Positions 13,632 to 58,931 of a stretch of DNA of 64,000 nucleotides are shown in pieces (the stretch's first letter is position 1; every line of letters starts with the position of its first letter). The notes beneath the pieces are model-generated. The model saw nothing but the letters and a program-made list of their open reading frames with translations. It was not told where the DNA came from and did no database searches. Source of the stretch: Parcubacteria group bacterium (GTDB taxonomy: Bacteria > Patescibacteriota > Minisyncoccia > Phycocordibacterales > Zambryskibacteraceae). The stretch lies in assembly GCA_028286565.1 (NCBI GenBank), contig JAQBRH010000004.1:122168-186167 (forward strand), in the 5' to 3' direction. Both the position numbers and the translations under genes were made by a program.

Positions 13632-13970
13632 TTATTTCTTATCTGCGGACCCCTTGGCGGCCTTAGCGGCGGAGACTTCTGCCTCCTTTTTCTTGATCTC
13701 GAGGTCCTTTTGCATCTTTCCTCCGTGCTTGGTGAACTTCCTGGTGAGGGAGAACTCTCCGAGTCTGTGGCCGACCATGTCTTCGCTCACGAAGACCTCG
13801 ATATGGTCCTTGCCGTTGTGGACGCCGAAAGTAAACCCGACCATCTCAGGAGCGATCTGCGAGGCTCGGGCCCAGGTCTTGATAACACCGGTTGTACCGG
13901 GTTTCTTGCCCTCTATCTTTTTAAGGACGCGAGGGTCGACATATGGGCCTTTTTTGCTTGATCGTGTCAT
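13632..13970 (-). CDS. rpsS: 30S ribosomal protein S19 with a lysine-rich C-terminal tail
   Basis: Core [14 protein letters not shown]...[35 protein letters not shown] matches S19, with an extra ~25-aa K/A-rich tail. Confidence 0.95.
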
Positions 13971-14008
13971 GAGAAATAAAGAAAGCTCGCACGAGCTTCG
14001 GGAAATAT

Positions 14009-14035
14009 AGTATAGAAATCAGGCTTTAATGTCAA
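14009..14035 (-). promoter_or_regulatory. Strong consensus promoter for rpsS: -35 TTGACA, 15-nt spacer, -10 TATACT, followed by a 5'-UTR hairpin (13993-14008)
   Basis: Minus-strand read TTGACA-ttaaagcctgatttc-TATACT...cccgaagctcgtgcgagctttc...ATG. It shows that rpsS heads its own transcription unit after the S10-cluster split. Confidence 0.5.
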
Positions 14036-14036
14036 A

Positions 14037-15473
14037 TTGGGCCTCTCTGCATGCTATGATATCCGCATGGATTCGGACCGCATGAGGTTAAAAGCTCTCG
14101 AAAGGGAAAAACTCGAGAAGGAAAAGGCTATCCATCCTGAGTTTTTCCCCGAGCAGGCCTGGGTGGACGATAAAGAACTCCTCGAAACCTTGGGTATTCA
14201 TATACCGAACAAGGAGAACCTCCCAAGTGCTTATCTCAAGCTCCTTCCGAGTGACTTCATAGTGGAAGAAGAAACCCAGACCGGGTACCAAACTGACACC
14301 CTCCCTGAACGTACTGCCCTAACAGGAGAAGATGGAGGCACTGTGTATGCGACGCTCGTCAAATGCGGGCTTTCGACCATTGAAGCGGTGGATGAGCTGG
14401 CTAAGCTTTTGAACACAACCAAAGACAAGATCCAGTACGCCGGCATCAAAGACAAGGACGCCGTCACCTCTCAAGAAATTTCTTTTAGAGGCTCTTCGCT
14501 TGAAGCGATAAAGAATATGCGCTCTCCCCATTTCTTCCTCAAGGATGTACGCCCGGGCAAGGGCATCGTGATGCGAGGAGGACTTAACGCAAATAGATTT
14601 ACTATCCTCCTGCGAATAGGAGAAGACATGGAAGATAAGGCTAAGATGAAAAATGCCCTCGAAGCTCTTGAGAGGGTAAAGAATGAAGGGTTTTATAATT
14701 ATTTTTATCTTCAAAGGTTCGGTTCTCCGCGTCTCAATAACTACAAATGGGGGCTTTCTATACTTAAGGGTGACTACGAAAAGGCTGTTCGAGGGCTTAT
14801 CTCGGATCCGGGACTTCGAGAGATACCGTTTTTCTTGAAACAAAGAGAGGAGATCATCGCTCTGGCTCCCGATTGGGCCAAGGTGCTCGCCCGACTGAAT
14901 GAATTCCCTCTCGTCTTCCCTAGCGAGATCAGGGTAGTAGGGCATCTCGTGCAAAAACCGACCGATTTTCTTGGAGCTCTGATGAAGATCGAGGAGCAAG
15001 TTGTACTCTGGGTAAGCGCGGTCGCGTCTCTCATGTATAACCGCAAAGTGAGCGCATACCTCATGGCAGGAATGGAACCCCCCCGCACGCTCCCCCTCTT
15101 CCTCAGTCCGGACAAGAACGATTGGCTGCCCTATATGGAAGATATGGAAAATGTGGGGATCTTCCCTCCTAACTTCAATACTCTTCGGTCATTCCAGCGA
15201 ATATCCATTATGCATAAAGAGATAGAAACCAAGGACAAACCGAAGATCCATGCGGCAGAGGTCATCGCCGAAGGGATCGTGGTCAATTTTTCTCTTGGAA
15301 AAGGAGAATACGCGACCACTTTCCTCTCTCATTTCGTAAATTTATTGAACGGCTGGCCTCCGAAAGAAATGAATGGCGAGATCATCGACCTCAAAAAGCA
15401 TTTGGGCCAAGAACCTCTTGAAAAGACTCTCAAGTATTTCGAGACTGTAAATCTATCCAAGAAAAACGAGTAA
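14037..15473 (+). CDS. truD: tRNA pseudouridine synthase, TruD/Pus7 family
   Basis: Family motifs PSDFIVEE (PEDFxVxE), YAGIKDKDAVTSQ (GxKD catalytic-Asp loop) and NYFYLQRFG (NYFGxQRFG). The likely true start is MDSDRMRL at 14067, 6 nt after a TATGAT -10, i.e. leaderless. Confidence 0.75.
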   Translation: MGLSACYDIRMDSDRMRLKALEREKLEKEKAIHPEFFPEQAWVDDKELLETLGIHIPNKENLPSAYLKLLPSDFIVEEETQTGYQTDTLPERTALTGEDGGTVYATLVKCGLSTIEAVDELAKLLNTTKDKIQYAGIKDKDAVTSQEISFRGSSLEAIKNMRSPHFFLKDVRPGKGIVMRGGLNANRFTILLRIGEDMEDKAKMKNALEALERVKNEGFYNYFYLQRFGSPRLNNYKWGLSILKGDYEKAVRGLISDPGLREIPFFLKQREEIIALAPDWAKVLARLNEFPLVFPSEIRVVGHLVQKPTDFLGALMKIEEQVVLWVSAVASLMYNRKVSAYLMAGMEPPRTLPLFLSPDKNDWLPYMEDMENVGIFPPNFNTLRSFQRISIMHKEIETKDKPKIHAAEVIAEGIVVNFSLGKGEYATTFLSHFVNLLNGWPPKEMNGEIIDLKKHLGQEPLEKTLKYFETVNLSKKNE

Positions 15474-15480
15474 AAGAAGA

Positions 15481-15509
15481 GGCCGAACCCGTAGGTTCGG
15501 CCTTTGTCC
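15481..15509. terminator. Bidirectional terminator ggccgaacc-cgta-ggttcggcc between convergent truD and the 188-aa gene
   Basis: Perfect 9-bp stem with U-rich flanks on both strands. Confidence 0.7.
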
Positions 15510-15528
15510 ATTGAAGGACCCTTCTCAC

Positions 15529-16095
15529 TTACTGAACTGCCGCCGCGTGACGACTGTCCATCTCGGCGTCAGCCGGCCGGTCGATGCGCTCGATCCCGGC
15601 GGGAACTCGCTTCTCGTTCGTGAAGAAGAACTTCACGAGGACAAGCTTGATCTCGTCGAGCCGGACACCGTCGGTAACCGGGCCTTCGAAGCCGGCAGGG
15701 ACGATGCCGAGTACGTCATCGCGAACGGTGACGTTCTGCTTCGGCGAGCCCTGTTGGACACCGACGAAGTTGATCGTCAGCACGCCGTTCGGATTCAGCC
15801 AGATGTGGCAGAACCAGGGCGTCGATGCGAGGTCGCGAAGCGCTTCGGTCGTCGCACGGCTGAGCTCCGCGATCGGAGTGCCAGCCGGCGAGTACGCGAG
15901 TGTGACAACGAACTTGGTAGTGGCGCCTTCCTTCTGCTGCTTGTGCATCTGAGCGCGATCGAGGCCAAAGCCTGCGTTCGTGAGTGCTCGACGGACGAGC
16001 TCTGCGCTCACCATCTTCTCGTTGTTGTAGATCTGCACACCGGTGTCGACGCGTCCATCGCGGATACGTCCGACTGCTGCGAGATTCTCGGTCAT
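15529..16095 (-). CDS. Hypothetical protein (188 aa); visibly GC-richer than its neighbours
   Basis: Long ORF bounded by terminators on both sides, with no recognisable catalytic motif. The segment GVLTINFVG is weakly reminiscent of small heat-shock protein beta-strands; this is not established. Confidence 0.5.
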   Translation of the reverse strand: MTENLAAVGRIRDGRVDTGVQIYNNEKMVSAELVRRALTNAGFGLDRAQMHKQQKEGATTKFVVTLAYSPAGTPIAELSRATTEALRDLASTPWFCHIWLNPNGVLTINFVGVQQGSPKQNVTVRDDVLGIVPAGFEGPVTDGVRLDEIKLVLVKFFFTNEKRVPAGIERIDRPADAEMDSRHAAAVQ

Positions 16096-16214
16096 GCGAC
16101 TTCCTCCGGGCTTCTGCCCTAGTGGTAAGTGAGGAGTGAATGTACATCAGGTACCTGCCTGATTTGTTAATCATATCATATTCAATACCCAATGTCAAGA
16201 ACAACTAAGGCGCA

Positions 16215-16241
16215 GAAAAGGGCCCAACTGGGCCCTTTTCC
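16215..16241. terminator. Bidirectional terminator gggccc-aact-gggccc
   Basis: Perfect 6-bp GC stem flanked by aaaag and ttttcc. Confidence 0.65.
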
Positions 16242-16273
16242 GGCTATTTCGGTATTATCTAGCGTATACCGAG

Positions 16274-16963
16274 TTAGCGCTTGTCGCTCATTTCGCCGCG
16301 AACGCGTTCGATGAAGCGTCCTGCCGCTTCCTGTCCGCCGAGGCCGAAGGAGAGGCCAAGGGCAAGAGAGATAGCGATCACGATGCCTGTGAAGAGAGTT
16401 TGCGAGAATGCCGCTGCGATACCAAGCTGTGAAAGAGCGACGAGGATGGTGAAGATCCAGATTGCCCACTTGGCGATCGTGCCTGCGAAGTGCGCTGAGG
16501 TGATCTGAGCGCTCTTTGCTGCGGTGACGACCACTCGGTCGACCACATCCCCTACCACGCCTCCGACGAGGAGGATGAGGGCTGCGACGATAACACGAGG
16601 GAGGTACGCAATGACAACGTCCTGGAGGAATACGTTGACCTGGTTAAGGCCGAGGACGTTGAAGGCTGCGATAAGGAACACGAGGATCACGAACCACTTG
16701 ACGAGACCGCCGATGAAGGCGCCTGAGTCGAGGTTCATGCCGCTTCGTCGAAGGAATGTTTCAAATCCTGCTCGGCGAAGCGCTTCGTCAACACGGAGAG
16801 ATCGGAACACCTGCCAGATCGCTCGGCCAAAGAGTGCGCCGATGAGCCATCCCAAGATGAGGATGATGATCGCGATAATAAGGTTTGGAACAAAGCTGAC
16901 GATCCCTAACCAAAGATTTTGGAAGGAAAGAGTCAATACTTGTCCCCATGTAGTCATAATCAT
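16274..16963 (-). CDS. Membrane protein with internally repeated conserved-TM-helix modules (MscS N-terminal-like)
   Basis: 229 aa, 5-6 TM segments and two similar halves (LWLGIVSFVPNLIIAIIILILGW... and AKWAIWIFTILVALSQLGIAAAF...). Assigned on pattern only. Confidence 0.6.
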   Translation of the reverse strand: MIMTTWGQVLTLSFQNLWLGIVSFVPNLIIAIIILILGWLIGALFGRAIWQVFRSLRVDEALRRAGFETFLRRSGMNLDSGAFIGGLVKWFVILVFLIAAFNVLGLNQVNVFLQDVVIAYLPRVIVAALILLVGGVVGDVVDRVVVTAAKSAQITSAHFAGTIAKWAIWIFTILVALSQLGIAAAFSQTLFTGIVIAISLALGLSFGLGGQEAAGRFIERVRGEMSDKR

Positions 16964-17079
16964 ATATTCTGGACTGTAGACCGTTACTTATTAATTACCA
17001 CCCGATGTGGTTATGCCCTATTATACACCTCTATTTCTGATTTAAATCAACTCTTGGCCCGACTGTGGATAGGAATCGC

Positions 17080-17640
17080 CTAGAGCCCGAGTTTGTTGTG
17101 GATCTTCTTGTGGTTAAAATCGAGAATATCGCGGACAAGCTTGTCGTAGAGGCCCAAGCGATAGTGGAAATCGGCGGTCTCAAAAGCCGCATAGCGGATC
17201 TCTCGGCCAAGTTCGGCTTCGATCGACTCTATGGCGTGGATAAGGATCCCCTTCTTCAAATGGTCGCCGACAACAAGGAGGTCGACCCGAGCTTCGGGGT
17301 CATGAAGGAATACGCCGGAGATGAGCACGAGCTTGAGGGCGCCGCCGCGGGCCAGCTTTTTTATGAGCTCCTTTTCGGTGATCGGGGTCGCATCGACGAG
17401 GAAATGCTCGAGGGGCTTTAGGTATCTGTATACGGTGTTCAAGGTGTAGCCCTTGGCCCTCTTCCTGATGAGGCCGGAGCGGTGGAGATTTCTGATCTCT
17501 CGGGCGACGAGCGGGCGTCGTTCTTGGGTTCGTTCGGCGACGGTCCCGGCATCATAGACGGAGCCCGGATTAAAGACAAAGAGGCGCATGATCTTTACTT
17601 TAGCCTCTCCGCCGAATATCTGAGCAACCGATTTGGTCAT
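17080..17640 (-). CDS. Hypothetical protein with an N-terminal winged-helix DNA-binding-like domain
   Basis: N-terminal KVKIMRLFVFNPGSVYDAGTVAERTQERRPLVAREIRNLHRSGLIRK resembles a wHTH. The C-terminal part (LVLISGVFLHDPEARVDLLVVGDH...) might be a degenerate nucleotidyltransferase-like fold; this is uncertain. Confidence 0.55.
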   Translation of the reverse strand: MTKSVAQIFGGEAKVKIMRLFVFNPGSVYDAGTVAERTQERRPLVAREIRNLHRSGLIRKRAKGYTLNTVYRYLKPLEHFLVDATPITEKELIKKLARGGALKLVLISGVFLHDPEARVDLLVVGDHLKKGILIHAIESIEAELGREIRYAAFETADFHYRLGLYDKLVRDILDFNHKKIHNKLGL

Positions 17641-17724
17641 GGGGCCATTCTACACATATCCCCTGCGAGGCGCCAGGGCAATAAAAAGCTGGCATAAATT
17701 GCCAGCTACCCCTTCCGATTTGGT

Positions 17725-18177
17725 TCAGGTTCCAAATATAGCGTTGACTAGTCTCCTGGCATCAGCATCTCGAGCAGCATCGGCATCTCGAGCGGCATGA
17801 GCAACCTGAGCTTGCCACCTTATGGCATCTTGAGCCCAGCCGCAAGGCACATACAAATGCTCAGGCTTGAAGTCATTGCAGAGTTTGGCTAGGTTATCGA
17901 CCTTCACCTTAACGAAATCGATCTGCTTTTGCTCCTGATCGAAAGTCATGACCCACAGTTCCTTGCGCACTTTGCCTTTGTTCTCGAGATGCATCCTGCG
18001 TGTGTCGAGCAGAACGTGTGCACTCTCGGTGGTCTGCACCAGTCCTCTACTACGTAACAACTCCCAGACTTCGCTTAGAAGACACCACCCCCAGTAGGCC
18101 ATCTTTCCCGCACGTTCGAATTCGTCTGAATTACCGTGGAGGTGATATGTCTGGGGTAACACCGGAAGAAGTTGCAC
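17725..18177 (-). CDS. Hypothetical protein (150 aa) with a short ARDADA tandem repeat at the C-terminus
   Basis: ORF with no motifs. A 21-nt near-perfect tandem duplication at about 17760-17805 encodes ARDADAARDADARR. Confidence 0.45.
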   Translation of the reverse strand: MQLLPVLPQTYHLHGNSDEFERAGKMAYWGWCLLSEVWELLRSRGLVQTTESAHVLLDTRRMHLENKGKVRKELWVMTFDQEQKQIDFVKVKVDNLAKLCNDFKPEHLYVPCGWAQDAIRWQAQVAHAARDADAARDADARRLVNAIFGT

Positions 18178-18277
18178 GATGGATCCTTCCTGCCTTGGGC
18201 AGGTGGCTTAAGGATAATGGGTGCACGGGGTGTGCAGTCCGAAAATTAAAATATCACAACATTATAGGTTAGTCAAC

Positions 18278-18355
18278 ACAAAACCCCGCCATGCGGGGTT
18301 TTGTCCCCTCTCCCTACCTAGGAGAGGGGAGACACGGCGTACGGGTGAGGTTATT
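18278..18355 (-). repeat. Copy A of a ~70-nt 3'-flank element: two tandem hairpins (ccccgc/gcgggg and ccctctcc/ggagaggg) plus U-tract, abutting a stop codon
   Basis: Near-identical to 21118-21186 (aaaa-cccc-gcgggg-ttttgtc-cctctcc...taggagagggg...ggtgaggttattt). Acts as a terminator for minus-strand transcription. Confidence 0.7.
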
Positions 18356-18419
18356 TGAGTGTTACTTTTCCACCAGCCGTCGTCGCAAGCTCCTCCTTAA
18401 GAACCCTCGGTTCTCAACG
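18351..18419 (-). pseudogene. Degenerate duplicated 3' end of rplL (encodes ...EPRVLKEELATTAGGKVTLK then stop)
   Basis: Hand translation of the minus strand gives GGKVTLK-stop, identical to the C-terminus of the intact rplL 150 nt away (..EEAGGKVTLK), preceded by a related LKEEL segment and an in-frame TGA upstream. Confidence 0.55.
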
Positions 18420-18502
18420 AAAAATGCCCATATGGGCATTTTTCTGCTTTCCTCCACGGGAGACCAGATGTTCTCCCGACCCCTCTCAAGCTGTCGTAAA
18501 AG

Positions 18503-18991
18503 TTACTTTAAAGTAACTTTTCCTCCAGCTTCTTCGATTCGCTTCTTCAATTCTGCGGCTTCTTCGTTCTTCATATCGGTCTTCAACATAGAAGGAGCTG
18601 CGTCGACGAGATCCTTGGCTTCCTTGAGGCCGAGTCCGAGGATTTCCTTGACCACCTTGATGACGGCGATCTTGTTCGCACCGCCGTCGGTGAGCTCAAC
18701 GTTCGCGGTCGACTTTGCGTCTTCTGCAGGACCCGCTGCGGCGGCCGGGCCGGCTGCGGCGACGGCGGTAGCCGAGACGCCGAACTTCTCTTCGAATACC
18801 TTGACGAGTTCGTTAAGGTCGAGGACAGACATCTCTTCGATCTCCTTTACGATCTTTGAGAACTTCGCAGGAACTGCGACTTCTTTCTCCGCCTTGGCTT
18901 CAGGCTTAACTTCCGCCTTAGCCTCTGCTTTGGCCTCGGGAGCGGGAGCGGCAGTTTCCTCCGCCGGTGCTGTGTTTGTAGTGTCGTCCAT
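18503..18991 (-). CDS. rplL: 50S ribosomal protein L7/L12
   Basis: Ala/Glu-rich hinge and C-terminal domain (GGANKIAVIKVVKEILGLGLKEAKDLVDAAPSMLK...EEAGGKVTLK). Confidence 0.93.
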   Translation of the reverse strand: MDDTTNTAPAEETAAPAPEAKAEAKAEVKPEAKAEKEVAVPAKFSKIVKEIEEMSVLDLNELVKVFEEKFGVSATAVAAAGPAAAAGPAEDAKSTANVELTDGGANKIAVIKVVKEILGLGLKEAKDLVDAAPSMLKTDMKNEEAAELKKRIEEAGGKVTLK

Positions 18992-19009
18992 TGTGGTAAT
19001 TTTAATTTA

Positions 19010-19498
19010 TTAAGACTTCTTCTCTGCTATCTGACCGAGCGCGATAGCGAAACGCTGTATCGGAGAATTGATGATGTTCACGAACATGCCTCGGAGCACC
19101 GGAGTGGTCGGGATCGTAGCGATCCCCTCCATCTCGGACTTCGACATGTATCTTCCTTCGAAAACTCCGCCGAGGATCTTCAATCCTTCAGGGAATTTCT
19201 TCTGGAATCCGTAGACTCCTCTCGCCGGAGCGATGAGGTCATCGGACCAGGCCATAGCGAGCTCGCCTGTGAGTTCGGGCTGAGCGCCTTCGAACTTTTC
19301 GGAATCGAGCACGCGCTTGGTCAAGGATTTCTTGGCCACCGAGTACGACACTCCCTCTGTTTTGAGGGTGCGGCGCATGGCGGAAGCCTGCGAAACCTTG
19401 AGGCCGTGGAAGTTGACGAAGACGAGGGACTTGGCGCTCTTTAGAGCATCCGCGAGCTTGTCTACAATTTCTCCTTTCTTGGCTTTGGATATTGCCAT
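19010..19498 (-). CDS. rplJ: 50S ribosomal protein L10
   Basis: 162-aa L10 (MAISKAKKGEIVDKLADALKSAKSLVFVNFHGLKVSQASAMRRTLK...) immediately upstream of rplL. Confidence 0.93.
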   Translation of the reverse strand: MAISKAKKGEIVDKLADALKSAKSLVFVNFHGLKVSQASAMRRTLKTEGVSYSVAKKSLTKRVLDSEKFEGAQPELTGELAMAWSDDLIAPARGVYGFQKKFPEGLKILGGVFEGRYMSKSEMEGIATIPTTPVLRGMFVNIINSPIQRFAIALGQIAEKKS

Positions 19499-19664
19499 GC
19501 TGTTAATGGTTAACGAACAAAAAAAGACCCATATAAGGCCTCGACATCCACATATGAAATGGGAGTGAGAGAGATCTCGGAAGGAGCTTAGTACCCTTGC
19601 GGGCTGCCTTCTGTCTTCGACCTTACGGGGATTACTTTATAGGAAAACGGAGAAAAGTCAAATA
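19499..19664 (-). promoter_or_regulatory. Long 5' leader of rplJ (candidate L10 autoregulatory leader) with upstream -35 TTGACT / -10 TAAAGT
   Basis: About 150-nt untranslated region between a terminator (19665-19690) and the rplJ start. L10 operons classically carry a structured leader bound by L10-(L12)n. The structure here was not verified. Confidence 0.35.
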
Positions 19665-19690
19665 AAAAAATCCTGACCGTAGTCAGGAAA
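19665..19690 (-). terminator. Terminator cctgac-cgta-gtcagg plus T7 run (minus orientation)
   Basis: Minus-strand read tttcctgactacggtcaggattttttt; it overlaps the stop of the 91-aa ORF at 19683. Confidence 0.6.
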
Positions 19691-19958
19691 CTTGGGATAC
19701 AACTCTCAGGCCCAGTCGCGCCGCATGGAAGCGCCGATAGGAAGAAATGTTCGGGATAGTCTCCGTAAGCTCTCGGAGCTTTTTGTGAAGCTCATCCGGA
19801 TTGTAGCGGATAAAAGCTCTCCGACTACCGCCTCTTCTTTCTACGCACCAGAGGCAGAAGTCGAGATACAGCCATTCCGCAAGACCGAAGATCGCAAGGG
19901 CAAAGAATACATAAGACGCAGCCAATGGGCGCATACGCTCCTCTCTGAGAAAGGACAT
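19683..19958 (-). CDS. Possible small membrane protein (91 aa)
   Basis: ORF ending in the terminator above, with a hydrophobic segment YVFFALAIFGLAEWLYLDFCLWCV. A competing plus-strand ORF overlaps it, so the call is low confidence. Confidence 0.3.
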   Translation of the reverse strand: MSFLREERMRPLAASYVFFALAIFGLAEWLYLDFCLWCVERRGGSRRAFIRYNPDELHKKLRELTETIPNISSYRRFHAARLGLRVVSQVS

Positions 19959-20014
19959 GGGTCTAAAGCCAGACTATCTTAATTAAAATAAAAAGCAAAT
20001 AAAAAAGCACGAAA

Positions 20015-20290
20015 TTATTCGCGCTGAGCGGGAACGTAATGTTCGACGGTGCAGGCAGAAACACTCTCGATCGCAAGGGGGTTTTTCGCCCGCAGCGTAT
20101 TGCATCGCTTGAGCAGAAGTTCTGCACGCTGCTGAATGAAGACTGTGGGCGCGTCCGTCTGAGCGAGGACGAGCAAGTGGCCAATGTCAGAGATGATCTT
20201 GCGCCGAAGCTTGAGTCTCTCAGGATCAGCTCTGTTAGCCTGAGCATCCTCTTCTGCGGTGGGCATTTCGTCGATATCGGGACCGGGCAT
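20015..20290 (-). CDS. Hypothetical small protein (91 aa, acidic N-terminus)
   Basis: GAGGA RBS 6 nt upstream of the ATG and a perfect TTGACA -35 further upstream. A competing plus-strand ORF (20039-20332) cannot be excluded. Confidence 0.35.
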   Translation of the reverse strand: MPGPDIDEMPTAEEDAQANRADPERLKLRRKIISDIGHLLVLAQTDAPTVFIQQRAELLLKRCNTLRAKNPLAIESVSACTVEHYVPAQRE

Positions 20291-20398
20291 TGTGTCCTCA
20301 CTGGTAAAAGAGCGTGTACCTTACTCCTTTAAGAAATATCATTTCAACCAACTAATGTCAATCAAAAAACTCGGGGATTTTTGAATTTTAAACGTGTA

Positions 20399-20737
20399 TT
20401 ACTTCGGTTCAACAATTACCGCTGTGCCGTAGGCGAGGACTTCGGTGACGCCCTGCATCAGCTCTGTGGTGTCGTATTTGAACCCTATGACGGCGTTTGC
20501 GCCCATTTCTGCAGCATGGGTGAGCATCAGGTCAAAAGCATCTTCTCTGGTCTTCTCGCAGAGTTCGGTCAGGATCGTGATGTTCCCTCCGATGAGAGTC
20601 TGGAGCCCCGCTCCGATCGATCCGACGATCGAACGCGAACGCACAATGATGCCTCGAGAAATACCGATATTCTTTACTACCTTATACGCATCGAGCTCGA
20701 ACGCTGTGGTCACCATGTTGTGGGGTATTGTTGTCAT
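20399..20737 (-). CDS. YbjQ/UPF0145 family protein
   Basis: ~110-aa protein with the typical Gly-rich repeated pattern (GIIVRSRSIVGSIGAGLQTLIGGNITILTE...GANAVIGFKYD...GTAVIVEP). Confidence 0.8.
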   Translation of the reverse strand: MTTIPHNMVTTAFELDAYKVVKNIGISRGIIVRSRSIVGSIGAGLQTLIGGNITILTELCEKTREDAFDLMLTHAAEMGANAVIGFKYDTTELMQGVTEVLAYGTAVIVEPK

Positions 20738-20809
20738 AAACCTATTTTAACACAAGCAAAAATCAATTTTTACGTGAGATATCCCAGGAGAGAAGGGATA
20801 AATTAAACC

Positions 20810-21103
20810 TCAGGAAGTCCAAATGGAACTGATAATCCAAACTGAACCGAGGATCAGGATGACCGCAGAGACTCCAAACAAAGTAATAAATCTTCCCTCT
20901 TGTTGTTTTCTGACTTCACTCACCAGTCCCACAATCAGTCCAAGAATTGCAACAATAGCTACGATTATCGCAGCACCGTAAATGCCAAAAGCGACTCCGA
21001 AGCCTTCCGCACCGCTAGCTGTATTGCTTTCGTATATCCAAAAGAATAAATGCACAACTACCACAGCTATAAGTGAAAGAAACACCTTGGTAATTATTTT
21101 CAT
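20810..21103 (-). CDS. Small membrane protein (97 aa, 3 TM)
   Basis: Start taken at the internal ATG (MKIITKVFLSLIAVVVVHLFF...). The track ORF runs upstream into rplB and is not credible. The ATG lies 6 nt after a TATACT (leaderless pattern). Confidence 0.55.
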   Translation of the reverse strand: MKIITKVFLSLIAVVVVHLFFWIYESNTASGAEGFGVAFGIYGAAIIVAIVAILGLIVGLVSEVRKQQEGRFITLFGVSAVILILGSVWIISSIWTS

Positions 21104-21117
21104 ATATACAGTATATA

Positions 21118-21186
21118 CACAAAATCCCCTTGCGGGGACTTTTGTCTCCCTCTCCTTTCGTCTAGGAGAGGGGTGGGGTGAGGTTA
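21118..21186 (-). repeat. Copy B of the ~70-nt tandem-hairpin 3'-flank element, immediately after the rplB stop codon
   Basis: The alignment to 18278-18355 is near-identical across both hairpins and through the stop codon (ggtgaggTTAttt). Confidence 0.7.
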
Positions 21187-22023
21187 TTTCTTTCCGACCT
21201 TTCGTCTTCGGACGATGAATTTGTTCGAGTATTTCTTTGCTCGGCGGGATTTCTGGCCCTTTCCGGTCGGCTTGCCGTAGATAGAGATCGCTCGGCGTCG
21301 TCCTCGACCCTGGCGGCCTTCTCCTCCTCCGTGCGGGTGGTCGACGGGGTTCATGGCCGTACCGCGGACGGTAGGGCGAATGCCAAGCCATCGTGAGCGT
21401 CCGGCCTTCCCGAGGTTTGTGAGGCGGTTCTCATCGTTCGAGACCTCGCCGATGGTTGCCCAGGCGTTCTCAGGGACCTTCCTCACTTCGCTCGAAGGCA
21501 TCTTGATGTCCACGTAGCCTCCGTCCTTGGCCGAGACCTCGACATAGTTCCCTCCTGATCGAGCTACTCGCGCGCCTCCTTGAGACTTGAGCTCGACGTT
21601 GTAGATAAATGTTCCGACGGGGATGTTTTTGAGGGGAAGCTTGTTGCCGGGAACGAGCGGAGCATTATCTGAAGCGATGAAAGTATCTCCGACCTTCACA
21701 TTCTTCGGGAGAAGGGCGTATCGCCTCTCTCCGTCCTTGTAGGCCACGAGTCCGATGAATCCCGAGCGGTTCGGATCGTATTCAACGGTCTTCACGGTGA
21801 AGGGGACGTTCGGCTTGTTGTATGTAAAATCAATGTCTCGGAACAATCTTTTGTGCCCGCCACCCTTGTGTCGAGTAGTGATGCGCCCGGTGTTGTTGCG
21901 TCCGTTCGCTCGGCGAAAACCGGTGGTAAGGGACTTCAAAGGCTCGCTCTTCGTCAAGAACTTCTTGAATTCGACGTGAGTCGTTTGTCGGTTCGATTTG
22001 GTTGTGGGTTTGTATCGTTTCAT
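21184..22023 (-). CDS. rplB: 50S ribosomal protein L2
   Basis: 279-aa L2 (..GRNNTGRITTRHKGGGHKRLFR..., C-terminal GGGEGRQGRGRR...). Confidence 0.97.
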   Translation of the reverse strand: MKRYKPTTKSNRQTTHVEFKKFLTKSEPLKSLTTGFRRANGRNNTGRITTRHKGGGHKRLFRDIDFTYNKPNVPFTVKTVEYDPNRSGFIGLVAYKDGERRYALLPKNVKVGDTFIASDNAPLVPGNKLPLKNIPVGTFIYNVELKSQGGARVARSGGNYVEVSAKDGGYVDIKMPSSEVRKVPENAWATIGEVSNDENRLTNLGKAGRSRWLGIRPTVRGTAMNPVDHPHGGGEGRQGRGRRRAISIYGKPTGKGQKSRRAKKYSNKFIVRRRKVGKK

Positions 22024-54359: not shown

Positions 54360-54394
54360 TTTCCCCTCACAAAAGGACATCAAGTTTTGTTATT

Positions 54395-54410
54395 TGTGGA
54401 GTTATCCACA
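54395..54410. promoter_or_regulatory. Perfect DnaA box TTATCCACA embedded in a 16-nt palindrome TGTGGAgtTATCCACA, next to an AT-rich tract
   Basis: Exact 9-mer consensus at 54402-54410, with a second perfect box in opposite orientation at 54827-54835. Confidence 0.5.
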
Positions 54411-54667
54411 GTTTTTATTTATTTTTGTCCTTTAAGGAGTATACTTCTATCCAGACGCAAAGCAGTGAATGTGGTTCCATCTGAACAACGCGAACTGCGG
54501 CATGGCACCTTGGGGTTAGTCGACGAACCCCTGAAAGAAGTGTTTGGTTTAAGAAGTGGGCCAACGCGAGGACGACATATCGACACCTTTATTTATGCGA
54601 TATAGTCTGTACATCGCTCCCCTCTTTTGCTGAGACTTCCTTTCCCTGGTCAGCCAGCAGCTGACAA

Positions 54668-54700
54668 CCCCGCCCCGCAGTTCGCCATGCGTGGCGGTTT
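54668..54700 (+). terminator. Hairpin cgcca-tgcg-tggcg followed by TTTTTTATTT in a non-coding region
   Basis: Terminator-like structure with no credible upstream CDS; it could mark the 3' end of an ncRNA. Confidence 0.4.
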
Positions 54701-54826
54701 TTTATTTGCCCAGAGCGGGAGATCAGGAGGATTGTCCTTCACCCGTCCCTTATACATAAGTGCTAAACTTAATAGGTGTCTTGAAAGCCCTTGGTTGAGC
54801 GGTGACTATACAACAGTTCTCGAATA

Positions 54827-54835
54827 TGTGGATAA
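54827..54835. promoter_or_regulatory. Second perfect DnaA box (TGTGGATAA, the reverse complement of TTATCCACA)
   Basis: Exact consensus, 425 bp from the first box, in the same 590-bp non-coding region. Confidence 0.5.
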
Positions 54836-54951
54836 CTATGGGGAAACTGTGTATTACGGACAGTTTTATAAAGTCATATGGCCTTAAGTCCCTTATTTTA
54901 AGCCATATTTTGGAAATAGATTTCACGTGAAACTATACACATAGGTTACAC

Positions 54952-57467: not shown

Positions 57468-58931
57468 ATGGTTACACTAAAGATCCCCAAAGAGATACAC
57501 GCTGTTTCAACTATTCTCAAAAAAAATAATTTTGAGGCTTTTGTCGTGGGAGGATCCGTTCGCGATCTCTTGATCGGACGAACTCCGACGGACTGGGACC
57601 TCACGACGTCCGCTACTCCGGAGAAAATAGTGGAGCTTTTTCCCCACACCTTTTATGAGAACGATTACGGCACCGTCGGAGTAGTAAACGACGAGACCGA
57701 AGATGAAACTCTTAAAACCGTAGAAGTAACTCCGTACCGGATCGAATCCGGCTATTCTGATTTCCGCCGCCCGGACAAAGTTGAATGGGGAAAGACGGTG
57801 GATGTTGACCTCGCGCGCCGAGACTTCACCATGAATGCGATCGCCTACGATGTGGATACAAAGACGCTTGTGGATCCATTTCACGGAGAAGAGGACATCC
57901 GGAAGAAGCTTATCCGCACAGTAGGGAAGCCGGATGAACGTTTCAGCGAAGACGCTCTCCGCATGCTGAGAGCCATCCGCCTCTCGGCCACGCTCGGCTT
58001 CGCCATCGAGCACGACACTCAGAAAGCGATCGAAGATAACAAGCAGCTGCTCGCCCATATTTCCAAAGAACGCATCAGAGATGAGTTCATAAAGATCATT
58101 TTGTCCGAAGCTCCGGCTCAAGCGCTCGACCTCGCCGCACGACTCGGCGTGCTCAAATATATCTCTCCGGAACTTTTGAAGGGCATCGGCGTCGAACAGA
58201 ACCGAGCGCACGCGTACACCGTCTGGGAACATCTTCTGCGTTCGCTCCAGCACGCCGCAGATAAAAAATATCCGCTTCATGTTCGGGTCTCCGCTCTTCT
58301 TCATGACATAGCCAAGCCCCACACCAGAAAATGGTTGAATGATCAGTGGACCTTTTACGGACACGAAGTGGTCGGAGCAAAGATCGCGAAGAGCTTACTG
58401 AACGATCTGAAATTTCCAAAAGAGATCGTGGACAAGGTGCACAAACTCGTTCGCTGGCATATGTTCTTCTCGGATACCGAAGAGATCTCGCTCTCGGCTG
58501 TTCGTCGCATGGTGCGAAACGTCACTCCGGAGCTCATTTGGGACCTCATGGATGTTCGTGCGGCGGACAGGATAGGCACTGGCAGGCCAAAGGAAGCTCC
58601 GTACCGCCTCAGGAAGTACCACGCGATGATCGAAGAGGTCATGCGCGATCCGATCAGCGTAAAGCAGCTCAAGGTGAACGGGGGAGATATCATGAAGATA
58701 ACGAGCGCTCCGGCGGGACCGCATATCGGTTTCATCTTGGAAATTTTGCTCTCAGAAGTGCTTGAAGATCCAAAGTTGAATACAAAAGAATATTTGGAGG
58801 ACAAGGTCCGGGAGTTACACGCACTTTCTCCGGAGGAACTTTCACAGCTCGGAAGGGAAGCGCGAATGAGGAATGAGCTCGAGGATGAGAAGGAGGTAGA
58901 GAAGATCAAAGGCAAACACGGGGTGAAGTAG
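57468..58931 (+). CDS. cca: tRNA nucleotidyltransferase (CCA-adding enzyme) with a C-terminal HD domain
   Basis: Pol-beta nucleotidyltransferase head (GGSVRDLLIGRTPTDWDLTT), tRNA-NT body and an HD motif (LLHDIAKP); 487 aa. Confidence 0.85.
   Translation: MVTLKIPKEIHAVSTILKKNNFEAFVVGGSVRDLLIGRTPTDWDLTTSATPEKIVELFPHTFYENDYGTVGVVNDETEDETLKTVEVTPYRIESGYSDFRRPDKVEWGKTVDVDLARRDFTMNAIAYDVDTKTLVDPFHGEEDIRKKLIRTVGKPDERFSEDALRMLRAIRLSATLGFAIEHDTQKAIEDNKQLLAHISKERIRDEFIKIILSEAPAQALDLAARLGVLKYISPELLKGIGVEQNRAHAYTVWEHLLRSLQHAADKKYPLHVRVSALLHDIAKPHTRKWLNDQWTFYGHEVVGAKIAKSLLNDLKFPKEIVDKVHKLVRWHMFFSDTEEISLSAVRRMVRNVTPELIWDLMDVRAADRIGTGRPKEAPYRLRKYHAMIEEVMRDPISVKQLKVNGGDIMKITSAPAGPHIGFILEILLSEVLEDPKLNTKEYLEDKVRELHALSPEELSQLGREARMRNELEDEKEVEKIKGKHGVK

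Follow-up and report, generated by a model that had tools for sequence, protein, structure and literature searches.

Four contiguous minus-strand open reading frames (ORFs), here called A (15529-16095), B (16274-16963), C (17080-17640) and D (17725-18177), lie between the ribosomal protein genes rpsS and rplL in a 64,000-nucleotide stretch of a contig assigned to Parcubacteria (Paceibacteria). The whole stretch is referred to below as the window. An earlier sequence-only reading had located the four ORFs and their ribosomal setting correctly and had treated them as one cluster. According to our analysis, C and B form a core pair that is inherited vertically across Parcubacteria, separately transcribed and non-mobile. 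The region as a whole is a mosaic of these two core genes, one accessory gene (A) and one likely artefact (D). C encodes a 186-aa winged-helix protein with a catalytically degenerate nucleotidyltransferase (NTase) domain of the MNT type, and B encodes a 229-aa membrane protein that corresponds roughly, by sequence, to the membrane portion of MscS and has no cytoplasmic vestibule. C-B is not a new class of system but a well-defined core pair of a winged helix-turn-helix (wHTH)-MNT pseudoenzyme and a vestibule-less MscS-like protein. We consider it moderately probable that the two constitute a conserved regulator/membrane pair following rplJ-rplL, with A, truD and D in variable slots around it.

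Conservation of the C-B pair

For the comparison, homologues of C were aligned and one genome per GTDB species was then scanned. A C relative was found in 391 genomes, and 80 loci were fetched, against which the window proteins were run by tblastn as a test of co-conservation. These loci comprise clade 1 (51 loci, C 53-92% identical) and clade 2 (29 loci, C 44-53% identical). The genes rplJ, rplL, C and B are collinear in every locus with enough flanking sequence. B was found in 78 of the 80 loci, the remaining two being cut by contig ends, and C and B are adjacent in all 78 testable loci, with insertions of up to 2 kb between them being tolerated (L048, L082). The invariant upstream neighbours of the pair are rplL (L7/L12; 18503-18991, minus strand) and rplJ (L10; 19010-19498, minus strand), both identified by Pfam annotation in related loci. 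Even C relatives at only 34% identity keep the order L10-L12-C-B.

The position of this block differs between the clades. In clade 1 it is found between rplB (L2) and rpsS (S19), as in the window. In clade 2 it lies outside the S10 operon; 23 of the 29 loci have a 23S and then a 5S rRNA gene in the same orientation, starting 0.4-1.2 kb past B, and most of the other six end before the expected 23S position. Median identities to the window in clade 1 are 79% for S3 and L12, 77% for B and L2, 69% for L10, 65% for L22 and 60% for C. B, a membrane protein, thus changes at the pace of universal ribosomal proteins and is under unusually tight constraint.

Only C and B are co-conserved among the four ORFs in the 80 loci. 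Because D is never conserved and A is patchy, a four-gene unit is refuted; lack of co-conservation had been named beforehand as the finding that would decide against it. The term lineage-specific, which had been applied to all four ORFs, holds in the sense of a Parcubacteria-wide C-B pair and not for the four together.

The transplanted rplJ-rplL-C-B block separates rplB from rpsS and so splits the S10 operon (window 13632-22023; loci L006-L085). Variable genes occupy the slots around this block, namely ybjQ, bPH_2, truD, MazE/PemK and SocA/Panacea. No specific report of a relocation of rplJ and rplL was found in the literature. In clade 2, 23S rRNA genes 3' of B carry group I introns and LAGLIDADG endonuclease ORFs (L081:12628-19512, L085:12133-16870, L072:12284-17285).

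C is a winged-helix protein with a degenerate nucleotidyltransferase domain

An N-terminal winged helix and a degenerate NTase-like C-terminal half had been recognized in C from the sequence, and PADLOC family matches and hhalign profile comparisons agree with this description. The accompanying statement that no family could be named for any of the four ORFs has to be corrected, as C matches PADLOC PDC-M05A and B matches Pfam PF05552 and NCBIfam msc. More than 1549 homologues of C are present in a database of 5.8 billion protein clusters, and a profile search returned 1768 clusters at 50% identity, nearly all of 185-215 aa. Pfam gave no above-threshold match for the C protein of the window. 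The PDC-M05A model PDLC04368 matches it at 6.6e-14, and PDC-M05A models match 60 of 60 diverse members of the C family, with a best value of 9.3e-21. In PDC-M05, a candidate two-gene system, a nucleotidyltransferase (M05A) is combined with a HEPN protein, as is typical of toxin-antitoxin modules (PMC12988326).

A protein from the Burkholderia plasmid pMBR01 (WP_181709906.1) was reached through a weak full-length tblastn match to C. It passes the Pfam models Polbeta (5.7e-9) and NTP_transf_2 (1.2e-7), and a small overlapping ORF follows its gene. The C family aligns with this protein over 182 columns and both domains (hhalign probability 98.2%, E 6e-14). In the alignment, the canonical FGSTARG...SDIDLM stands opposite ISGVFL...EARVDLL of C. 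The hG[GS] motif is absent from C, since F-G-S aligns with S108-G109-V110 and the Ser is replaced by Val110; G109 is nearly invariant. The DxD/E carboxylate pair is absent as well, because S-D-I-D-L aligns with A-R118-V-D120-L and the first Asp is replaced by Arg118. D120 is invariant in the C family, for which the consensus is SRxDLL. A new, strongly conserved motif, FxTxDFxYR..DKLxRDILD, is found in the C-terminal helices.

The AlphaFold2 model of C that was calculated from a 60-sequence alignment has a predicted local distance difference test score (pLDDT) of 94. Its NTase core shows the elements helix 89-97, strand 101-108, strand 121-126, helix 130-144 and strand 150-154, and C displays both MNT homology and the order of the fold (alpha-beta-alpha-beta-alpha-beta). 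The winged-helix fold is present too, and its structure matches are to DNA-binding wHTH regulators. PDB sequence and profile searches with C gave wHTH matches only. As fold searches return wHTH proteins, the NTase assignment rests on the profile comparison and the order of secondary-structure elements in the model. A first model, based on a shallow 24-sequence alignment (pLDDT 66; only wHTH in the fold search), was replaced by the 60-sequence model.

Judged from its sequence, C is a domesticated and probably non-catalytic descendant of a wHTH-MNT antitoxin-type protein. Over its full length it has the same two-domain architecture as the wHTH-MNT proteins of MNT-HEPN (type VII toxin-antitoxin-like) pairs, i.e. 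component A of PDC-M05. In contrast to these pairs, C has no HEPN or small partner. Pfam and PADLOC scans found neither a HEPN nor a PDC-M05B protein in A, B and D, and the gene downstream of C encodes a five-segment PF05552 membrane protein in all 78 testable loci. C further differs from wHTH-MNT proteins in the exchange of GS for GV, in the Arg at the first Asp of DxD and in the new motif of the C-terminal helices. Its gene is core, syntenic and slowly evolving, whereas wHTH-MNT genes are patchy and mobile. Compared with MarR/ArsR regulators, the effector/dimerisation domain of C is an NTase scaffold and not the MarR helical dimer interface. In addition, no palindromic operator was found near C-B, where the sole conserved DNA element is an asymmetric 9-mer.

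B is a small MscS-like membrane protein

B had been described as two conserved transmembrane (TM) helix modules, and this proved to be right. Pfam PF05552 ("Mechanosensitive ion channel, conserved TM helix") matches two stretches of B above the cutoff (E 5e-16), and five hydrophobic segments are present. NCBIfam msc matches B at 1.2e-21, but its 77 bits lie below the cutoff of 100 bits. Residues 114-206 of the B-family profile align weakly with TM1-TM3 of MscS structures (E 0.007-0.03). Pfam found no beta-domain (PF00924) in B, which stops at residue 229, 19 residues beyond the last hydrophobic segment. In 74 loci B measures 228-238 aa, and all of these except one fall within 228-233 aa. From the hydropathy profile with its five segments and positive-inside loops, the N-terminus is predicted to be outside and the C-terminus inside; the Arg/Lys-rich loop 48-80 and the C-terminus are thus predicted to be cytoplasmic.

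Among 106 families enriched in Candidate Phyla Radiation (CPR) bacteria is a five-TM family annotated as mechanosensitive, fam001364 (Meheust et al. 2019, PMC6744442). It shares the five TM segments and the mechanosensitive annotation with B and is probably the family to which B belongs. B resembles MscS/PF05552 proteins in its two PF05552 modules, and its C-terminal half resembles TM1-TM3, including the Gly/Ala-rich last helix. It differs from MscS in the missing vestibule, the duplicated first module, the extreme conservation and the fixed position beside C and rplJ-rplL.

Separate promoters of C and B

A -10 box with the sequence TAGAAT, TACAAT or TATAAT stands exactly 6 nt upstream of the ATG of C in most of the 80 loci. 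Frequently it overlaps the stop codon of rplL or comes after a terminator hairpin. In the window this box is TAGAAT (17647-17652, minus strand). With a -10 box only 6 nt before the ATG, the mRNA of C is presumably leaderless and C is transcribed on its own. The same pattern, a -10 box 6-8 nt before the ATG without a Shine-Dalgarno sequence, recurs at the first genes of operons (33934, 38572, 41852, 17640), and leaderless mRNAs consequently appear to be common in this organism, as a habit of the lineage. Most genes of the window lack a Shine-Dalgarno sequence. A literature search gave no specific report of leaderless mRNAs in Patescibacteria.

The -10 box of B is TATAAT (17020-17025, minus strand) within GGTGTATAAT, a sequence conserved among clade-1 loci in the spacer between C and B. 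The resulting 5' leader of about 55 nt (16964-17014, minus strand) has no Shine-Dalgarno sequence and is conserved in clade 1. Near its 5' end it contains the hairpin ACCAC-AUCGG-GUGGU (17011-16997). For 24 of 27 B leaders, folding predicts a hairpin at this position, with stem sequences that differ between sub-lineages; the folding energies are weak (mean z -1.1), and RNAalifold on a MAFFT alignment of B leaders gave no consensus structure. Rfam gave no match in the C-B spacer, either at the gathering threshold or at E<=1. Behind B, the terminator that had been noted between B and A is confirmed as an intrinsic hairpin with T-run, AAAAGGGCCC-AGTT-GGGCCCTTTT, read from the sequence (16216-16239, minus strand).

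Upstream of the B promoter, 38 nt before the -10 box in the window, a DnaA-box-like element, CTATCCACA, was found (17064-17072, minus strand). In 70 of 78 loci, an element of the TTATCCACA type precedes B on the coding strand; compared with the rest of the loci, its enrichment there is about 115-fold. Where insertions part C from B, it remains on the side of B. Where the C-B spacer is short, the element is embedded in the last codons of C (TAT CCA CAx = Y-P-H). Its spacing to the -10 box of B is bimodal, 28-29 or 38-40 nt, i.e. one helical turn apart. Because of this helical phasing the element is a candidate protein-binding site facing RNA polymerase. As the adjacent predicted DNA-binding protein, C could be its binder; the case for DnaA is weighed below. 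The promoter of B resembles DnaA-box-regulated promoters in that its 9-mer is the consensus TTATCCACA or one of the usual variants and is helically phased to the -10 box. It differs from them in that there is a single box and not an origin-like cluster, and no dnaA gene is nearby in the window. A candidate ORF for dnaA (57468-58931) turned out to be a CCA-adding enzyme.

The same promoter architecture as before B, TTATCCACA-N29-TATACT, occurs at 54402-54445 on the plus strand of the window. There it opens a stretch of about 560 bp without a long ORF (54387-54950), which also holds an inverted TTATCCACA (54827-54835) and gave no Rfam match even at E<=1. This stretch may represent a non-coding RNA that has escaped annotation, or else a region resembling an origin.

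Proposed role and alternatives

According to the explanation that we favour, C descends from wHTH-MNT proteins that pair with HEPN toxins and has lost both the HEPN partner and the two catalytic signatures. It would act as a non-enzymatic transcription regulator, in which the dead NTase domain may serve dimerisation or ligand sensing. B would be a small membrane channel or a sensor of the membrane state, and the two proteins would act together as a regulator/membrane pair. Plausibly, either C or DnaA controls the B promoter at the predicted TTATCCACA element. The slots around C-B collect accessory DNA, i.e. A, truD and the D cassette. The fixed position next to rplJ-rplL, and next to the 23S rRNA gene in the sister clade, suggests that the pair is linked to growth or to the translation apparatus. 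Of the earlier proposal of a regulatory, transport or defence module, the regulatory and transport parts are reasonable for C-B, with its wHTH and MscS-like proteins, and the defence part is not supported.

Several observations weigh against this explanation. The likeness of B to MscS beyond PF05552 is weak, as the E values given above indicate, and no NTase structure was among the matches listed in two fold searches with C, in which wHTH proteins ranked top. C and B each have their own promoter, and terminator-like hairpins are located between them in some loci. DnaA is at least as likely a binder of the upstream element as C, because TTATCCACA is the universal DnaA box and the variants TTGTCCACA and TTATTCACA fit its degeneracy. 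One C relative of 30% identity, on short contigs, lacks the rplJ-rplL context. Moreover, the sampling of loci was anchored on C and limited by peptide patterns.

That all four ORFs are one lineage-specific regulatory, transport or defence module inserted into the ribosomal region is hardly credible. They are co-directional and contiguous, and C matches a PADLOC model for defence candidates. However, D was found neither in the protein database nor in any of the 80 related loci, A is limited to 8-9 loci, each of the four has separate promoter-like sites and terminators, and the partner expected of PDC-M05A is missing, as described above. A toxin-antitoxin or abortive-infection pair, either domesticated or still active, in which B would be a membrane-depolarising toxin checked by C as MNT-like antitoxin, is very unlikely as well. 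The descent of C from MNT antitoxin-like proteins speaks for it, small membrane proteins are common effectors, and nearby variable slots in related genomes hold the toxin-antitoxin genes MazE/PemK and SocA/Panacea. Toxin-antitoxin systems and defence islands are patchy, mobile and fast-evolving, yet C-B occupies a fixed position and order in every sampled locus, and B matches L2 and S3 in its conservation, in contrast to toxins, which evolve fast. The catalytic residues required by MNT antitoxins for AMPylation of their toxin are missing from C, and the genes have separate promoters instead of forming one autoregulated operon. A pattern scan found no C-B relatives in IMG/VR viral contigs, and a PHROGs search for a phage origin gave no match. 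With no HEPN or other effector partner and conservation at the level of ribosomal proteins, a defence function of the pair is contradicted on the same grounds.

A role of C and/or B as factors of the translation apparatus, be it as regulator of rRNA or ribosomal protein genes, as ribosome-associated protein or as membrane tether, is the most interesting alternative, although we regard it as unlikely. Its evidence is the gene neighbourhood: the order rplJ-rplL-C-B is kept in two macro-contexts, in the S10 operon or upstream of 23S-5S, and conservation reaches the level of ribosomal proteins. Several factors of ribosome biogenesis and silencing, including the NTase-fold protein RsfS, are missing in CPR bacteria (PMC6744442). 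But C has no sequence similarity to RsfS and was rejected as an RsfS-like protein (hhalign probability of 0.2% against E. coli RsfS), its wHTH matches are DNA-binding regulators, and no TTATCCACA box that could be part of an rplJ promoter lies within 400 nt upstream of rplJ. Neighbourhood is, furthermore, weak evidence when genes are transcribed separately. Similarly doubtful is the view that C and B are unrelated housekeeping genes whose adjacency reflects historical inertia in small, rarely rearranged genomes. Their separate promoters and the tolerated insertions between them would fit. Nevertheless, the surrounding context was rearranged at least once (S10 operon versus 23S), and variable genes were inserted on all sides, yet the order is constant in 78 loci (C 44-92% identical) and in the relatives at 34%. 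Because the order survived both relocation of the block and repeated insertions, plain historical adjacency is hard to reconcile with the data.

A bolder version of the regulator/membrane pair, to which we give only a small probability, is that C-B is a core system specific to Parcubacteria that arose by domestication of a type-VII-like antitoxin. The enzymatically dead wHTH-MNT protein and a vestibule-less MscS-like channel would together link the state of the membrane, or the osmotic state, with how the translation apparatus is expressed or functions. Such a coupling would explain why the pair is locked to rplJ-rplL and, in the sister clade, to the 23S rRNA gene. If it is true, C-B might compensate for regulators that CPR bacteria lack.

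Parcubacteria represent a very large, uncultivated share of bacterial diversity and have tiny genomes, so that genes kept in every member are likely important. For two such core genes, ancestry and anatomy are now given. C clearly illustrates how an enzyme of the toxin-antitoxin type has become a core protein without catalytic function. B is an MscS-like membrane protein of minimal size, and its rate of evolution is as low as that of ribosomal proteins. Testable handles are provided by the invariant order rplJ-rplL-C-B, by the promoter of C with its leaderless start and by the phased TTATCCACA that precedes B. Scans of the PADLOC type could flag C-like genes as defence candidates, where the genomic evidence indicates housekeeping.

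A is a patchy accessory gene

A (minus strand) encodes a real, soluble accessory protein of 188 aa that belongs to a small, patchy family confined to Parcubacteria and stands outside the conserved pair. The exact protein is annotated as JWN89_505. Besides itself it has seven full-length homologues at 50-65% identity, and no match was obtained in Pfam, NCBIfam, PADLOC, PHROGs or PDB. Its higher GC content, pointed out previously, is evident from a GC peak of 0.62 against about 0.52 in the flanks. The codon score is 0.31 in its own frame, within the range of confident genes, and -0.04 in the best antisense frame. A plus-strand ORF over A (15511-16122), which a gene caller had chosen in a relative, was rejected, since tblastn gave 77 bits for the minus and 35 for the plus frame and since its codon score is -0.05.

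Hidden Markov model (HMM) matches to A occur in 8-9 of about 45 clade-1 loci (~20%), each time in the interval from B to rpsS/truD; clade 2 has none. Weaker copies were detected by HMM in L007, L011, L012, L017, L037, L041, L042 and L050. In six members (L007:11502-12155, L012:12528-13241, L017:12300-12977, L037:3223-3819, L041:11667-12233 and L050:11580-12233), HMM positions 135-186 come before positions 5-136 within a single ORF. As the C-terminal 50 residues of the window type lie N-terminal to the core in these proteins, the family includes circular permutants.

A has its own promoter, TTGACA-17-TATGAT with TG (16170-16198, minus strand; 11 of 12 positions match the consensus), and a Shine-Dalgarno sequence GGAGGA, read from the sequence (16102-16107, minus strand). 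The hairpin terminator behind A (15480-15503, minus strand) is shared with the convergent gene truD, which lies on the plus strand between A and rpsS (14037-15473). The complete minus-strand order is rplB (21184-22023), ybjQ, rplJ, rplL, D, C, B, A, rpsS, rplV, rpsC, rplP and rpmC.

D is probably not a gene

D (minus strand) is an ORF of 150 codons for amino acids with a GTG start in a window-specific insertion of about 675 bp (~18340-17665). The ARDADA tandem repeat reported for it is indeed there, as D contains AARDADAARDADARR. Its status as a gene could not be upheld. Among the 5.8 billion protein clusters no match was found at E<=0.01; since even D itself is missing there, it was evidently not called in the source record. 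Neither tblastn nor blastn gave a match in the 80 loci, including the closest relative (C 92% identical), which has a different spacer of 353 bp. The codon score of D is 0.015, compared with 0.167-0.472 for 23 confident genes, and Rfam gave no match in the D cassette (gathering threshold and E<=1). Speaking for a gene, the own frame of D scores best of its six, and D has a Shine-Dalgarno-like GGAAGGA, a promoter-like site (18276-18248) and a terminator (17707-17687). D is probably a non-coding ORF in recently inserted, strain-specific DNA; an orphan gene is less likely.

A structured RNA and other features near rplL and rplB

Immediately downstream of rplL, a structured RNA motif of about 150-180 nt was detected (window 18340-18515, minus strand), for which Rfam gave no match. 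An outer helix closes a junction of three hairpins. In an alignment of eight sequences, 91.6% of the cells are paired, against 39-56% with partners slid; compensatory changes occur in 15 of 42 pairs, and none of 500 shuffles reaches the observed score. The motif always stands right after the rplL stop codon and is found in both clades, but in only about 10% of the loci. The other copies are L054:7001-7179, L052:88-267, L037:58-223, L012:8790-8957, L053:5883-6047, L034:1-118 and L070:3724-3876.

A relic of a second L7/L12 C-terminus (KEELATTAGGKVTLK*) is located about 105 nt after the true rplL stop (window 18351-18398, minus strand), where it forms the 3' side of the outer helix of the RNA motif. 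In L044 a similar duplicated rplL 3' end is present without an insert. These features suggest that the rplL 3' end repeatedly took up DNA insertions, with duplication of that end each time.

Farther upstream, a 193-aa ORF (window 20810-21391, minus strand) shares about 200 nt with the 3' end of rplB and has a codon score of -0.18. Its tblastn matches all fall at the rplB 3' end. The N-terminal part is probably an out-of-frame shadow of rplB, and any real gene would start further downstream.

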